NCBI GenBank assembly: GCA_943787795.1
Contig: CALSNU010000001.1
Coordinates: 480,001-544,000, forward strand
Direction of reading: 5' to 3'
DNA: 64,000 nt
Source: an uncultured bacterium
Lineage (GTDB): Bacteria; Planctomycetota; UBA1135; GCA-002686595
In this document: piece by piece, positions 36,001-42,000 of the stretch
Numbering within the stretch: position 1 is the first letter of the stretch
How the letters are laid out: every line of letters starts with the position of its first letter
Position numbers: made by a program

Positions 36001-39000
36001 CATGTGGACTGCGAGGGAACGGGGGTTGGCGACAGCCCGGTTGCGAGGCTGATCAGAAGGGCAGTGTGGATCATTGCTGCTCGGGAAGTGAGCGGAGGGA
36101 AAGTGGAAACGGGTGAATCGATCGGTCGCGGCCGCGGCGCGGCCACGGTGGCCATATCCCCTTGCGGCGGGGACGTGGACGCCGATCAGCGGTCGGGAGT
36201 AGCCCGCTCTGGTGAGCGGGAGCGGGCGGTCCTCAGCGGTCCTTCGCCGCCTCGTTGAAGGCGCGAAGCATCTGGAGTGAGCCCTGGGCGCGGATCAGCT
36301 CCATCTCGAGCTGGGCGTCGTCGAAACTCCCCTGCTCTAGGTGGCGCTCAAGTTCCTCGATGAGCTCGGCGTCCGCGGGGGACCGCTCGTCGGGGACTTC
36401 GGCCAGTTGGGAGGCTTGCTCGAAGCGCTGCTCTCTCTTGCGCACCTCTTTGAGGGCCTCCTTCGAGAGCTCGGAGAGCTCAACGAACTCCGCGGAGGAT
36501 GACGGTCTCCCCACCGAGCGGTTCTGGCTGCCATCGACGGCATCGAGGGTCTCCGGCAGAGCAGGGTCGCTCGGGCGACCTCCGGGAAGCGGGGCGAGCA
36601 TGGCGGCCTGGTCCGCCCCCTCCGGCAGCTCATCGCCTTGTTGAGGGACGTTCCCCACGAGGGTCGAGATCCCGAAGAGGCTCAGGCCTCCTAGCAGTAG
36701 GACGGCTCCGCCGATCGCTAGCCGTGATGCACTCCGTGGCGATTTAGAGGTCTCGTACGGCGGCTGTTGTCTGGACTGGTCTTTCATGGGAGAATTACTC
36801 GGAAGGATCAGAGGTAGCAGGGGAAAATTACTGCGATTGGGCCGGCGGGATCCCATTGTGAAGGGAAGTTTACGGTCAGCTGTCGCGGCCTGAGATCCGC
36901 CCGCGCGCCAAGCGTCAGTGAATCCTGCCGGCTCGTGCGAGGTGTCCTGGCGTGGCGACGCGGCACAGCGCCGTTAGCGCCTCCACCGCACGGCGAGATC
37001 GCCAGGAAATCGAAGGTGTCCGGGGGCCCACGGGAAAACACCCTCAGCCCTAGGGGCGACCGTGTTTCAGTCTGGCGACCCAGCCCTCCGCTGCTCACCT
37101 GGGAGCCGCGGTTCGACAGTTGCGGAACCGTGGTCGTCGAGGCCAGCTAGCGCGGCCCTGGGAGGCCTTCGACCGGTTTCCCAAGGCCGCGAGTCTTCGA
37201 GTAGGGTGCGACCTCATGTACGCAAGCCCACTGCTGATGGACCGTCGATCCCTGCTCGCGGCGGGCGCCTCACTCGCCGCGGCCCCCCTGGCGAGTGCCC
37301 TCGCCGCGCCTCCAATGGAGCCCGTCCGTGTCGGCGTGATCGGCATCGGGATCCGCGGCCGAAACCTGATGAACCGAAGCCTCATCGGGAAGGAGGGCGT
37401 CCTCGTCACCGCCGTGTGCGACGTGGACCTCAACCGCCGCCTCGACGCGAAGCGCCGGGTGGACGAGGTGCACGGGCTGGACTGTGTTGCGACCGACCGG
37501 CACGAGGAGGTGCTCTCCCGGGACGACGTGGATGCGGTCCTCATCGCGACGCCCGACCACTGGCACACTCACCAGATCATCGACGCCTGCGTGGCGGGCA
37601 AGGACGTCTACTGCGAGAAGCCCCTCACCCTGACGCTCCGGGAATCACAGCTCGTCATCGCGGCCGCGCGCAAGTACGGGGTCGTCTTCCAGACCGGGAG
37701 CCAGCAGCGGACGGAGTTCGGCCAGAGATTCGTGCGCGCCGCGGAGGCCGTCCGGGCGGGCCGGATCGGCAAGGTGCAGTCAGTGCACGTCGGAGTCGGC
37801 GACTCGCCGGTGTGGTGCGATCTTCCGGGTGAGGCGCCTGAGCCCGGCCTGGACTGGGACCGCTGGCTCGGCCCGGCCCCCGAACGCGCCTATAACGAGA
37901 TTCTCAGCCCCCGCGGCGTCCACGGCCACTACCCGAAGTGGCGCTCCTACCGGGAGTACGCGGGGGGTGGGCTCGCCGATATGGGGGCGCATCACTTCGA
38001 CATCGCCCAGTGGGCTCTCGGCATGGACCGCTCTGGCCCGGTCCGGGTGGTGCCCCCGTCGGATCCGACCTCAAAGCGTGGGGCGACCCTCGTCTACGCG
38101 GACGGGGTCCGCCTCGTGCACGGCGGCCCCAGCGGCGTCACCTTCATCGGGGAGGAGGGGCTGATCGCGGTGGACCGCGGCCGGATCTCCAGCGTCCCGG
38201 GCGGCGCCCTTGAGTGGGAGGGGGAGGGCGAAGAGCGCCTCCCCCGGTACGACGGGCACGTGGCCAACTGGCTCGGGTGTATCCGCGACCGGAGCACCCC
38301 GATCTGCGACGTGGAGGTCGGCGCGCGCAGCGCAGCGATCTGCCACCTCATGAACATCGCGTACTGGCACCGCAAGGAGCTCACCTGGGACCCCGGGGCC
38401 TGGCGCTTCGAGGAGGAGGGCGCCAACGCCTGGGTCGACTACTCTCGCCGATCGGGCTACGGCCTCCCGGGCTTCTGAGCGGCCGCCGGCCAGCGGCCGG
38501 GTCAGGGCGCGAGGCCGTCGATGACCCTGTCGAGGTCCCTGAACGCGGTGTCGGCGTCAAAGGGCATCACCGCGTCCCTGGCGGCGCGGCGGCGTGACGT
38601 GGAGCGCAGGGGTCTGGGGTCACGGGCGAGTGCGACGAGGCGCCCCGCGAGGTCGGAAGGATCCTGGAGGAGGCCGGTCAGGGGGTCGGCGCCCTCGTAG
38701 CCCGAGAGGAGCGCAGGGTAGTTGAGGCGGTCTGGCGCGAGGGGGGAGCCGCCGGCGGCCATGGCCTCGGTGAACGCGACGCCGAAGAACTCGTGGCGCG
38801 CGGTGGAGGCGACGACGTCGCAGCGGCCGAGGATCTCGAGGTATCTGGAGCGATCCTCCACGTGCCCGGAGGTTCGCAGCCAGGGGCGCATGAGGTCCAG
38901 CGCCTCGGCGGCCTGGGGGCCGGCCTTCGCCGGGTGTCCTCCGAGCAGCTCGACCTCGAAGTCCGCCCCCTTGGAGGCCGCGCGGGTCAGCGCGTGCGCG

Positions 39001-42000
39001 AAGGCCAGGGGGTCCTTGTCGGGCTCGAGGCGGTGGGGGAAGGCGATCCGGAGCGGACCGTCCCCGCCCGGGCCGAGGGGGACGGACGAGAGCTCGGGCA
39101 TGGGAGGCACCACCGTGGCCGCGTCGAGTGCGCTCGCGAGCTCGGCCCGGGGCGTCGGGCGAGGGAGGCGCCGGAGGACCTCGTCCGCAGCCCCGCGGAA
39201 CTCCTCCAGGTGGAACCTGGAGTTGAAGACCACCCGATCCGCTCGCACCGCGCTGAGGATGTTGCTGAACCCGTGGGTCAGGTCTCGCTCGGCCTGGCCG
39301 CCGGGATAGGTCAGCTGGGTCTCATGGAGGTACATGAGCGACGGCCGGCCGGCCCAGCTCGGCGGGAGGAAGCCGTGGAGTCTGGGGAGGTCCACGTATC
39401 CGCTGCACGCGATCACATCCGGCGGCGCGGCGGTATCCACGCTTCGGGCCAGCTCCCAGGCGCTGGACTCCTGGCGCCACTTCCAGTGGCGCGGCGCGAG
39501 GCCGTGGACCGAGAGGCGGTGTCGTGTTCGCGCGCCCCAGGCGTCCAGGAAGGCGCGGTGGCTGCCGCCGAACCAGGGCTCGAAGAACGCGATCGAGAGG
39601 GAGAGCACGGTCCGATCCTAGCCGCAGGGCGTGAGCTGTCTGGTCTGGGGGCTCGGCTTCCGGGGATCTGGCTTGTCGCCCCCGCGGGCGCCGCCGATCA
39701 TGGGGGCTCGCAATCGTCAACGCCCGAAGAACATGGACAAGCAAGCCGTCGTCGCCACCCTCAACAAGATCCTCGAGATGGAACTCGCGGGGGTCGTCCG
39801 TTACACCCACTACTCGCTGATGGTGTACGGACCGTACCGCATGCCCATCGTGGACTGGCTGCGGGCCCAGGCGACCGAGTCGCTGCTGCACGCCCAGCAG
39901 GCGGGGGAGATGATCACTCAGCTCGGGGAGCACCCGAGCCTCGCGATCGGCCCGCTGCTCGAGACGCACGACCACGACATCGAGGCGATCCTCAAGGAGT
40001 CCCTCGAGCACGAACGCGACACGCTGGGCTTCTACAACGAGCTGCGCCAGCGCGTCGAGGGCCACTCGGTGATGCTCGAGGAGTACGCGCGCCAGATGCT
40101 CGCCACCGAGGAGCAGCACCTCGGCGAGGTCGACCGCATGCTCCGCCGGCCCGGTGACGTCGCCTCGGCGGCCGTCGGGCTCATGGGCTGAGGCCGAGCT
40201 GATGGCCGCTCGCAAGCGCTTCAGCGTCATGCGGGATCCGGTGCACGGAGACGTGTACCTGACCCATGAAGAGCTCCGCGTGCTCGACACGCCGGAGATG
40301 CAGCGCATGCGCGGCATCAAGCAGCTGGGGCCGGCCTACCTGGTCTTCCCCGGGGCGCTGCATACCCGCTTCGATCACTCGATCGGGACGGTGCACGTGG
40401 CGCAGAAGATGATCGACGCGATCAACCTCTCGTTCCAGCTGGACCCCGCGCGCGGGATCGCCATCGGGGACGAGGAGGCGCGCGTCATCCGGATGGCGGG
40501 GCTGTTGCACGACGTGACGCACATCCCGTTCGGCCACAACATCGAGGACCAGGACGCGCTCTTCGAGCGCCACGACTCGGCCTATCGCTACGAGAGGATG
40601 TTCAGCCGGGACACGCCCATCGGCAAGATCCTGGAGGAGCTCGGGCTCCGGGAGGAGGTCTTCAGCGTCCTCACGAAGCCCGGCACCCCCGGGCGCCGGG
40701 ACGTCCCTCCGTACTGGGGGCAGGTCCTCTCGGGGACGATCGCCGCGGACATCCTCGACTACCTCGCGCGGGACGCCTACTTCACGGGGCTCCGGCTCCA
40801 GGTCGACGAGCGCGTCCACAGCTACTTCAAGATCGATCGCTCCACCGGCAATCTCTACATCGACCTGGCGAAGCATGACCTCCTGCGGGAGGACATCCTG
40901 AGCGAGATCGTCCGCATGCTGGAGGCGCGGTACTTCTTCAGCGAGCGCGTTTACTACCACCACGCCAAGGTCGCCGCAGGCGCGCTGGTCGCCCGCGCCA
41001 TCGACCTCCTCGTGCGGGAGGAGGCGCTGGGCGAGCAGGACCTCTACGGCACCACGGACAGCTCGATCCTCGAGGTGCTCCTCCGGGCCGCGGCGAGGTG
41101 TCAGCCGGGGACGCAGGCCACGGTCCGAGACCTGGTCGAGCGCTTCCAGGAGCGGCGGTTGTTCAAGCGCGCGTGTGTCTTCCCGGCCTATGAGAACGCG
41201 GAGGTTCAGGCGGAGCTCGTGGACCGCTTCTTCGCCGCAGGCGGCGGGGAGGCGCGGGCCCTCGTCGAGGGACGTATCGAGGAGACGGTGCGCTTCGCCA
41301 CGGGCCGCGAGATCAAGGTCATCGTCTACTGCCCCGCGCGGGAGATGCAGCTCAAGGAGGCTCGCATTCACGTCCGCTGGCCTGGCGTGGAGGGCGTGCA
41401 CCCGCTGTCGGACTTCGCCGACAGGGTGCCGAGGCTCGGCGACCTGGAGCGCTCGTACCGCGACCTGTGGAAGTTCTACGTGCTCTGCGACGATCCGGAT
41501 CGGGACGTGCTCTTGAAGGTCCAGGAGGTCGCCGCGGCGGAGTTCCCTGGGGCCCGGAACGTCTACTCGATCGCTCCGGCCTGACCGCCAGCGGAGACCT
41601 CGGATCACCCGAGGGAGTTGGACGCGCGTGGGGGGGCCGGCGCCTCGGACCAGCGCGAGAGGGCCCGCACCCTGGGCGGGGCCCGGCCTCGAGCGCTAGC
41701 CCCGTCAACCGCCGCGTGACCTGCTCCTCTGTACCTCGAACGAGGCCGGGCTGATGGGAGGGTGCCGGAGCGCGACTGGCCCCACCCGCGGCGGCGGAGG
41801 GGGGTCTTCGGGGTCATCGGGGGCGACTCAGGGGCGCGTCGAGAGGAACCTCTCGAGGCGGGTGAGGGCTTCCACGAGGCGCTCCTCGCTCAAGGCGTAG
41901 GAGAGGCGGATGTGTCGCGGCGCTCCGAAGGCGGTGCCGGGCACGGTCGCGAGGGCCTCGGCTTCAAGGAGGTCGGCGCAGAATCCCTCGCTGCCGCGCT

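Follow-up and report, generated by a model that had tools for sequence, protein, structure and literature searches.

In a window of 64,000 nucleotides from the genome of an uncultured planctomycete, we find an intact gene whose product, P0001, is related to the enzyme with which animals add mannose to the tRNA base queuosine, and the host may glycosylate its own tRNA. Glycosylation of queuosine-34 (Q34) by P0001, predicted from homology and gene co-occurrence, is plausible, and we lean slightly towards it. According to the parts of the sources at hand, glycosylated queuosines are described from animals only, the bacterial decoration being glutamyl-queuosine (PMC10690763, PMC11755703), and no report of glycosyl-queuosine from bacteria was found in the literature searched. 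The survey's finding, which had presented the modification as so far known only from animals, is nevertheless less new than it implied, since UniRef and the ESM Atlas already name bacterial members of the family "tRNA-queuosine alpha-mannosyltransferase"; the gene in the window is a new, ordinary member of a family already catalogued.

The P0001 gene, its domains and its predicted fold

The features of the gene are collected in Table 1. The boundaries claimed for it in the survey were reproduced exactly. The frame is full-length and starts with a GTG codon, at the same position in alignment A1 as the starts of the homologues. The gene is monocistronic, with a convergent oxidoreductase gene upstream and divergent ferritin-like and HD-domain genes, and P0001 gives the single PF12038 match in the whole assembly (4.71 Mb, 84.9% complete).

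Table 1. Features of the P0001 gene, in positions of the window
Feature	Position	Strand	Basis
DUF3524/QTMAN-family glycosyltransferase gene (P0001), 368 aa	38502..39608	-	ORF list, translation, Pfam
AGGA, Shine-Dalgarno-like, 7 nt before the GTG of the P0001 gene	39616..39619	-	sequence reading
QTMAN_N (DUF3524) domain, residues 6-155	39144..39593	-	Pfam, alignments A1/A2, model
H-E-T-Q, residues 95-98	39315..39326	-	sequence, alignment A1
Glycos_transf_1 (GT4-type, nucleotide-sugar-binding) domain, residues 185-330	38619..39056	-	Pfam, alignments, Foldseek
E273-x7-E281 (H-E-F-F-G-V-A-F-T-E), intact	38766..38792	-	translation

The two-domain make-up that had been described, QTMAN_N followed by a GT4-type domain, was recovered with Pfam. 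QTMAN_N (PF12038) matched P0001 with an E value of 1.4e-36 and 126.3 bits (cut-off 25) over profile positions 2-152 of 168, and Glycos_transf_1 with an E value of 4.7e-7 and 29.9 bits (cut-off 26.4). The QTMAN_N half is the Rossmann-like N-domain of a GT-B enzyme and the presumed acceptor binder. Its residues S16 H17, W42-x-W44-R45, H95 E96 Q98 and N129 S130 are invariant across phyla (alignments A1 and A2), and P0001 keeps the FNS motif (F128 N129 S130), which we take to be, with HENQ, one of the conserved DUF3524 motifs named in the Pfam description. In the C-domain, P0001 has the conserved residues R193, E195, D197 and K198, together with E-x7-E, the hallmark of retaining GT4 glycosyltransferases; in the alignments across phyla E281 never varies, and conservation of E273 is 90% or more. 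Mean column conservation across phyla is 0.54 in the N-domain and 0.54 in the C-domain, and 12 of the 28 columns conserved at 95% or more lie in the N-domain. An N-domain conserved as strongly as the C-domain is expected if the members share a single, conserved acceptor.

The four closest sequences, P0001, P0003, P0007 and P0010, have HETQ; the other 30 sequences of alignment A1 have HENQ, and in alignment A2 conservation of the Asn of this motif (N97) is 90% or more. This substitution in an otherwise conserved motif, and a profile match of about 1e-37 against 1e-55 to 1e-66 in other Planctomycetota members, are what might be expected of a decaying or inactive remnant in the host lineage. We regard a remnant as very improbable, considering the full-length frame, the retention of E-x7-E and all other invariant residues, and a predicted structure with a pLDDT of 94.1. 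Moreover, HETQ is conserved in relatives with 69-79% identity to P0001, and the Asn-to-Thr change, being common to the four sequences, is a feature of the lineage and not damage. The gene is intact and conserved, with its catalytic motifs in place. The divergence of P0001 (HETQ, and a profile match that stops at 152 of 168) was also counted against Q34 as the acceptor.

In the predicted structure, P0001 consists of two Rossmann-like halves and has the fold of a retaining GT-B enzyme. The top Foldseek matches of the model were all retaining GT4 enzymes (E values of 7e-16 to 1e-11 and TM of about 0.6-0.73 against solved structures). GlgM (6tvp), MshA (3c48), PimA (2gej), BshA (6d9t) and SenB (8jjn) share with P0001 the GT-B fold, E-x7-E and the R/K donor-binding residues, whereas identity is 12-18% and the N-domain of P0001 belongs to a Pfam family of its own; no QTMAN chain was found in the PDB. 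The acceptors of these solved enzymes are small molecules or lipids. That they are the best structural matches speaks for the alternative that P0001 is a GT4 enzyme whose acceptor is not a nucleic acid but, for instance, a small metabolite, a lipid or a glycan precursor, and that only the animal branch was recruited to queuosine-tRNA; so does an identity to the animal enzymes of just 26-28%, the Swiss-Prot figure of the survey. However, the part that defines the family is the acceptor-side domain, which is conserved from bacteria to the QTMAN-named Pfam profile, and we found neither a signal peptide in P0001 nor a polysaccharide or cell-envelope cluster around its gene. On this and the following evidence we consider a non-nucleic-acid acceptor unlikely, though it is the most serious of the alternatives.

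Queuosine genes of the host and gene neighbourhood

The presence of three queuosine genes and of GluQRS in the host genome was confirmed on re-check: Tgt, QueA and QueG were all found, and GluQRS scored 300.2 bits against a curated cut-off of 276.7, while a search for QueH found none. One tRNA gene each was found for the GUN anticodons Asn-GTT, Asp-GTC, His-GTG and Tyr-GTA. The Q34-tRNA substrate can be made in the host cell, with the caveat that the Tgt of the host's genus is without the CxCxxC zinc motif.

The survey had noted no neighbourhood link between the gene and the queuosine genes, and this holds for the family: in the flanks retrieved for 81 family loci (10 kb at most, often less), no locus had a homologue of the host Tgt, QueA or QueG, and the neighbours recurring across loci were lineage-specific or generic ones. 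This absence is a further point in favour of a non-nucleic-acid acceptor, as is the patchy, accessory distribution of the family.

Co-occurrence of the family with Tgt and QueA

Of 8000 scored candidates, 317 are homologues of P0001 at E<=1e-5, and 383 cluster representatives match it at E<=1e-30. PF12038 is found in 67 of 301 Planctomycetota (22%), 16 of 401 Actinomycetota (4%) and 9 of 131 Chloroflexota (7%), and the DUF3524 family is an accessory gene in the three phyla sampled. The frequencies reported earlier were of the right size, both for Planctomycetota and for genomes of the same family as the host (4/15 here).

It had been claimed that co-occurrence with Tgt cannot discriminate. It can in phyla with a patchy distribution of Tgt and QueA, and such phyla were used for the test; genomes were counted regardless of kinship. 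Planctomycetota, in which QueA is near-universal (295/301), are uninformative for this reason: QueA is present in 65 of the 67 PF12038 genomes, while Tgt and QueG are found in the two that remain. Among the 401 Actinomycetota, QueA is present in 272 genomes, comprising 16/16 of those with PF12038 and 256/385 of the others, and PF12038 occurs in none of the 129 genomes without QueA (one-sided Fisher test, 0.0017, kinship ignored).

In Chloroflexota the family runs counter to QueA, which is present in 2/9 genomes with PF12038 versus 97/122 without, and all 9 PF12038 genomes have Tgt. When the 32 QueA-less Chloroflexota are considered, Tgt is found in 7/7 genomes with PF12038 as compared to 11/25 without (Fisher test, 0.0095, kinship ignored), and PF12038 occurs in none of the 14 that are without Tgt. 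The seven QueA-less PF12038 genomes look salvage-only: besides being without QueA, the five tested showed no QueG, no QueF over the cut-off and no full QueC (weak partial matches in two of them). The YhhQ/Vut_1 transporter was found in one of these five, as a weak match. Since PF12038 is here opposed to QueA, the support from Chloroflexota rests on taking Tgt-only genomes as queuine salvagers. Two points weigh against the phyletic tests: the Tgt-less Chloroflexota have small genomes (1.7-3.8 Mb, compared with 3.8-6.3 Mb for those with PF12038), and the PF12038-positive genomes may represent few clades.

Tgt is present in 47 of 50 further PF12038 genomes drawn from many phyla, and QueA in the three that remain; in a separate check of five of the 50, all five had QueA as well. 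Each PF12038 genome examined has at least one of Tgt and QueA, over four sets (67 from Planctomycetota, 16 from Actinomycetota, 9 from Chloroflexota and 50 of mixed phyla, with an overlap of two genomes). In patchy phyla the family is confined to genomes in which Tgt or QueA is retained. This makes a queuosine-linked function more likely, and the pattern, counted regardless of kinship, favours a queuosine-tRNA acceptor. A non-nucleic-acid acceptor would leave unexplained the absence of the family from the 129 QueA-less Actinomycetota and the 14 Tgt-less Chloroflexota, as well as its persistence with Tgt after loss of the de novo pathway.

What the phyletic pattern points to is the queuosine system as a whole, and tRNA-bound and free forms are indistinguishable by it. 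The acceptor might then be free queuine or queuosine (for storage, export or control of salvage), a precursor, or another nucleic acid bearing 7-deazaguanine. We hold this to be improbable, because the constant companion of the family is Tgt, the enzyme that inserts into tRNA, even when the synthesis genes are gone. Nor did phages offer a lead towards such an acceptor: among 50,697 phage records P0001 and P0204 had no match and P0130 a single weak, unannotated one, and the matches in IMG/VR were to the C-domain only.

Discussion

The closest known counterpart of P0001 is QTMAN (GTDC1), which the available parts of the sources give as the animal tRNA-queuosine alpha-mannosyltransferase (PMC12207525, PMC11755703, bioRxiv 10.64898/2026.03.22.713446). 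P0001 has the same Pfam architecture, with a near-full match to the N-domain profile, and its host has the machinery for queuosine-tRNA; some bacterial carriers also resemble animals in having Tgt and no de novo queuosine genes that we could find. Animal QTMAN was reportedly described in this function by Zhao et al. in Cell in 2023. P0001 differs from QTMAN in being bacterial and shorter, in having HETQ for HENQ, and in that its role is predicted from sequence. Its host also has GluQRS, which is not known from animals.

The other known queuosine glycosyltransferase, QTGAL (B3GNTL1), is described in the part of the source available as an animal galactosyltransferase for the queuosine of tRNA-Tyr (PMC11755703). 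It belongs to an unrelated family, and P0001 has no QTGAL-type Pfam match. The QTGAL fold is of the GT-A type.

GluQRS (YadB), the bacterial glutamyl-queuosine tRNA-Asp synthetase, modifies Q34 on its cyclopentenediol, as far as the consulted part of the source goes (PMC10690763). Like the DUF3524 family it is patchy in distribution, but its fold and chemistry, an aminoacyl-tRNA-synthetase-like esterification, are unrelated, and it tracks the phylogeny of families and not PF12038: in Planctomycetota it is found in 19/39 genomes tested with PF12038 versus 28/41 without. In bacteria, the position that GluQRS esterifies is Q34 of tRNA-Asp. The coexistence of the two genes in these 19 genomes and in the host counts against Q34 glycosylation, and because of it the target of P0001 may be a tRNA other than tRNA-Asp, or the two marks may compete.

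On the reading we favour, P0001 would be a soluble and active enzyme of the QTMAN/DUF3524 family, a retaining glycosyltransferase of the GT-B fold (GT4-type). The sugar donor of QTMAN is GDP-mannose and, by analogy, the C-domain of P0001 might take up this nucleotide sugar, while the conserved N-domain would bind, at its anticodon loop, a Q34-bearing tRNA supplied by the host's own Tgt, QueA and QueG. A hexose would then be passed to a hydroxyl on the cyclopentenediol of queuosine, and one of the four GUN tRNAs would come to carry glycosyl-queuosine. Acceptor, tRNA species, sugar and linkage are given here as we infer them. On a broader scale, we see an even chance that bacteria of many phyla, including the host, glycosylate tRNA queuosine by means of a family ancestral to animal QTMAN, and that some Chloroflexota have the whole animal-like route. 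The latter would consist of queuine salvage, insertion by a Tgt whose pocket is altered (and which often occurs together with a second Tgt paralogue) and then glycosylation.

In the genomes examined the family always occurs with Tgt or QueA, and with Tgt even after the synthesis genes are lost. What had been a label passed on by homology thereby becomes a specific and cheaply testable hypothesis. If it is true, a few per cent of bacterial species would have a new tRNA modification, the animal QTMAN would be of bacterial evolutionary origin, and simple bacterial systems would be at hand for asking what role the sugar plays in decoding.

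The gene and its family

A repeated Pfam search of P0001, the 368-residue product of the gene under study, recovered the two domains reported in the survey's finding, with the same residue ranges, namely QTMAN_N (formerly DUF3524) and Glycos_transf_1. The gene was the only PF12038 match in the host assembly (4.71 Mb, 8 contigs, 84.9% complete); E. coli, a bacterium that contains queuosine, served as control and gave no PF12038 match. No NCBIfam model matched P0001, and a sequence search of the PDB gave no related solved structure. Of 8000 candidates scored in a search of 5.8 billion proteins, 317 were homologues at E≤1e-5, the best 120 of which show 40-79% identity and belong to Planctomycetota wherever the label gives a name; an exhaustive search of cluster representatives returned 2278 matches at E≤1e-3, of which 1292 reach 1e-10 and 383 reach 1e-30. 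One homologue, P0017 from 'Planctomycetes bacterium Poly30' (55% identity), carries the UniRef label 'tRNA-queuosine alpha-man...', and bacterial clusters of the ESM Atlas appear under the same name (tRNA-queuosine alpha-mannosyltransferase). The gene is a new member of a family that is already known and named in databases.

QTMAN (GTDC1) is described as the animal enzyme that forms mannosyl-queuosine on tRNA-Asp, and sugar-modified queuosines are placed in vertebrates (PMC12207525; PMC11755703; bioRxiv 10.64898/2026.03.22.713446; 10.64898/2026.06.28.735034; PMC10690763); the available portions of these sources on QTMAN/GTDC1 make no mention of bacterial homologues. A literature search gave nothing under DUF3524, nor on glycosylated queuosine together with a bacterial homologue; Zhao et al. 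(2023), which lay outside its scope, may discuss them.

Coordinates of the features discussed (window positions, unless a residue range or another contig is indicated)
Feature	Position	Strand	Remarks
QTMAN-like glycosyltransferase gene	38502-39608	-	ORF, 368 codons, start GTG
AGGA	7 nt 5' of the GTG start of the QTMAN-like gene	-	sequence
QTMAN_N (PF12038, ex-DUF3524)	residues 6-155 of P0001		Pfam, E 1.4e-36
Glycos_transf_1	residues 185-330 of P0001		Pfam, E 4.7e-7
Gfo/Idh/MocA oxidoreductase gene	37120-38478		convergent with the QTMAN-like gene
Ferritin-like gene	39631-40191	+	divergent from the QTMAN-like gene
HD-domain gene (HD + HD_assoc_2, dNTPase-like)	40154-41584	+	divergent from the QTMAN-like gene; start overlapped by the ferritin-like gene
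Aminotransferase gene	after the HD-domain gene
1071-aa protein	32940-36155	-	CarboxypepD_reg/Ig-like repeat region
207-aa protein	36233-36856	-	no family
tRNA-Leu, anticodon AAG	45797-45883	-
Tgt gene of the host (L001)	C6:489520-490593		outside the window

When 50,697 phage records were searched by tblastn, nothing was found for the queries P0001 and P0204, and a third query, P0130, weakly matched a single record, 5.6 kb long and unannotated (20.7% identity, E 8e-5). A scan of IMG/VR returned five loci, which matched the C-domain only.

Conserved residues and predicted fold

Conservation was analyzed in two alignments, A1 (34 Planctomycetota sequences) and A2 (32 representatives, 28-55% identity). 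Residues invariant or nearly so in both are S16 H17, W42-x-W44-R45, H95 E96 Q98 and N129 S130 in the N-domain, and R193, E195, D197, K198, G276 and E281 in the C-domain. P0001 also contains E273-x7-E281, the signature of retaining GT4 enzymes. The sequence HETQ is found in P0001 and its three closest relatives, the family form being HENQ, and the PF12038 profile matches are weaker in the host's taxonomic family (E 1e-37 to 1e-51) than in other Planctomycetota (mostly 1e-52 to 1e-66); the branch of P0001 therefore appears somewhat divergent but conserved.

The AlphaFold2 model obtained from A1 (pLDDT 94.1, pTM 0.92) is made of two Rossmann-like halves. Its comparison with the PDB by Foldseek gave GT-B GT4 enzymes only, GlgM being the first (7e-16), followed by MshA, PimA, BshA and SenB; these enzymes resemble the model in fold, although their identity is just 12-18%. 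Motifs, model and structural matches together lead us to regard P0001 as an intact retaining glycosyltransferase; its gene is a real and undamaged member of the QTMAN/DUF3524 family.

Gene surroundings

The QTMAN-like gene stands alone at its locus. Its surroundings were compared with those of 80 related loci (81 in total), located on one-genome-per-species contigs from Planctomycetota, Lentisphaerota, Verrucomicrobiota, Zixibacteria, Bacteroidota/Rhodothermales, Ignavibacteriales, Desulfobacterota, Acidobacteriota, Actinomycetota, Chloroflexota and Spirochaetales. All ORFs that were 90 aa or longer and lay no further than 6 kb away were clustered, and shadow ORFs overlapping the QTMAN-like gene were removed before the neighbour clusters were ranked. 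The HD-domain neighbour is kept only in the window locus and the six closest Planctomycetota loci (L003-L008), and an isocitrate/isopropylmalate dehydrogenase recurs in nine loci from two lineages. The largest cluster (14 loci), which at first sight consisted of ABC-F translation factors, was rejected because single linkage had joined generic ABC ATPases (about 230-300 aa) that vary in distance and strand.

Homologues of Tgt, QueA and QueG, searched with the host proteins as queries, were found in the flanks of none of the 81 loci, many flanks being shorter than 10 kb. Gene order around QTMAN-like genes is uninformative on function, and the reading in which the enzyme glycosylates queuosine-34 (Q34) of a GUN-anticodon tRNA receives no support from the neighbourhood. 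A competing reading, in which the acceptor is a non-tRNA molecule, has to be set beside this result and beside the distribution of the family across genomes, which favours Q34; we consider it rather unlikely.

On the other side of the Gfo/Idh/MocA gene, the window encodes the 1071-aa and 207-aa proteins, which resemble the surface or secreted proteins typical of planctomycetes.

Co-occurrence with queuosine genes

The Planctomycetota sample comprised 301 genomes (90%-completeness filter, plus the host itself at 84.9%). PF12038 was present in 67 and QueA in 295, so co-occurrence is uninformative in this phylum. Two carriers of PF12038 gave no QueA match (G104 and G286); both contain Tgt and QueG, and their QueA was probably missed. 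The test was therefore moved to phyla in which the pathway is patchy, with searches centred on the Actinomycetota and Chloroflexota genomes reached via the related loci. Kinship was given for home-phylum genomes only. The background tallies hold seven unpublished genomes (six Actinomycetota and one Chloroflexota), all QueA-positive and none with PF12038.

Among 401 Actinomycetota genomes, 272 contain QueA and 16 contain PF12038. All 16 carriers have QueA, and PF12038 was found in 0 of the 129 genomes devoid of QueA (one-sided Fisher test, 0.0017, rising to 0.0026 when the seed genome is left out, related genomes being counted as independent). In the 131 Chloroflexota genomes (PF12038 in 9, QueA in 99) the direction was the opposite, since QueA was present in 2 of 9 carriers as compared to 97 of 122 other genomes. 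All nine carriers have Tgt. Within the QueA-less Chloroflexota, Tgt was found in 7/7 carriers vs. 11/25 non-carriers (Fisher 0.0095, with related genomes again taken as independent), so that in this set PF12038 is restricted to genomes that keep Tgt; the Tgt-less ones are small genomes, probably of other classes. The survey's finding had held that co-occurrence with Tgt cannot discriminate: this is correct for Planctomycetota, but not for Actinomycetota and Chloroflexota.

Tgt was present in 47 of the 50 PF12038 genomes obtained from the related loci. The other three contain QueA, and their Tgt was probably not assembled; every PF12038 genome examined thus has Tgt or QueA.

Apparently salvage-only Chloroflexota

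The QueA-less Chloroflexota carriers are G729, G769, G778, G787, G805, G814 and G830 (loci L089-L099). In the five of these seven that were searched for QueG, QueF and QueC, there was no QueG, no QueF above cut-off and no full QueC; two of the five gave weak QueC matches covering the first 60-70 profile positions, within ORFs of about 650 aa. These bacteria have lost queuosine synthesis and kept Tgt and the QTMAN-like glycosyltransferase, a layout that resembles the salvage arrangement of animals. A transporter of the YhhQ/Vut_1 type was matched in only one of five, weakly.

In the Tgt alignment, QueA-bearing Chloroflexota show the canonical F-D-E-C and G-G-L-A-V-G-E, whereas the seven QueA-less carriers, together with the non-carriers G716 and G741, show F-D-E-L, G-G-S-L-G-A/G and a roughly 20-residue insertion; in four of the seven carriers there is also a second Tgt paralogue, which is more divergent. 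It is at the Cys and the Val of the canonical motifs that the preQ1-using Tgt of bacteria and the queuine-using Tgt of eukaryotes differ. Their alteration, as seen in this comparison among Chloroflexota Tgt, would be compatible with a different base substrate.

The Q34 reading is supported on two counts: in two phyla that can do without Tgt or QueA the family depends on them, and the salvage-only genomes have kept the gene. An enzyme acting on some other queuosine-related substrate would share this link to the pathway, but we regard it as improbable. On homology and co-occurrence, we lean towards the prediction that the QTMAN-like enzyme glycosylates Q34 of a bacterial tRNA.

Queuosine machinery of the host and relation to GluQRS

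Repeated searches of the host genome recovered Tgt, QueA, QueG and GluQRS, all listed previously, the last above its curated cut-off; QueH was not found. The 45 host tRNAs include one each of Asn-GUU, Asp-GUC, His-GUG and Tyr-GUA. The sole host Tgt lacks the CxCxxC zinc-binding cysteines and reads ...PIFRAPHVAD... The Tgt of G262, from the same genus, lacks them as well, that of G268 retains one Cys, and CxCxxC is retained in G004, G056 and G135, three further genomes of the family. Since its catalytic motifs are conserved apart from this and the host keeps QueA and QueG, the host Tgt is probably a working, zinc-less enzyme.

The window also contains a tRNA-Leu with anticodon AAG; the other host Leu tRNAs are CAA, CAG and UAA, and neither GAG nor UAG was found among the 45 tRNAs of this 85%-complete assembly. 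It is unusual for a bacterial tRNA-Leu to have A34, which would mean that A-to-I editing is not confined to tRNA-Arg.

GluQRS was considered as a replacement or partner of the QTMAN-like enzyme in 80 Planctomycetota from 13 families, with carriers and non-carriers sampled in all families but one. GluQRS-like matches (E≤1e-70; calls are approximate, as only 15 passed the curated cut-off) occurred in 19/39 PF12038 carriers vs. 28/41 non-carriers (Fisher 0.11), and their distribution tracks family boundaries. Neither role was retained: the two enzymes are neither mutually exclusive nor linked. GluQRS varies within three of the families (f8, f48 and f58), and there it was found in 0/11 carriers vs. 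5/10 non-carriers (nominal p 0.012); this deficit may be due to chance and was judged too slight to build on, and the two genes coexist freely in six other families. The presence of both in the host points to different target tRNAs, or to competition.
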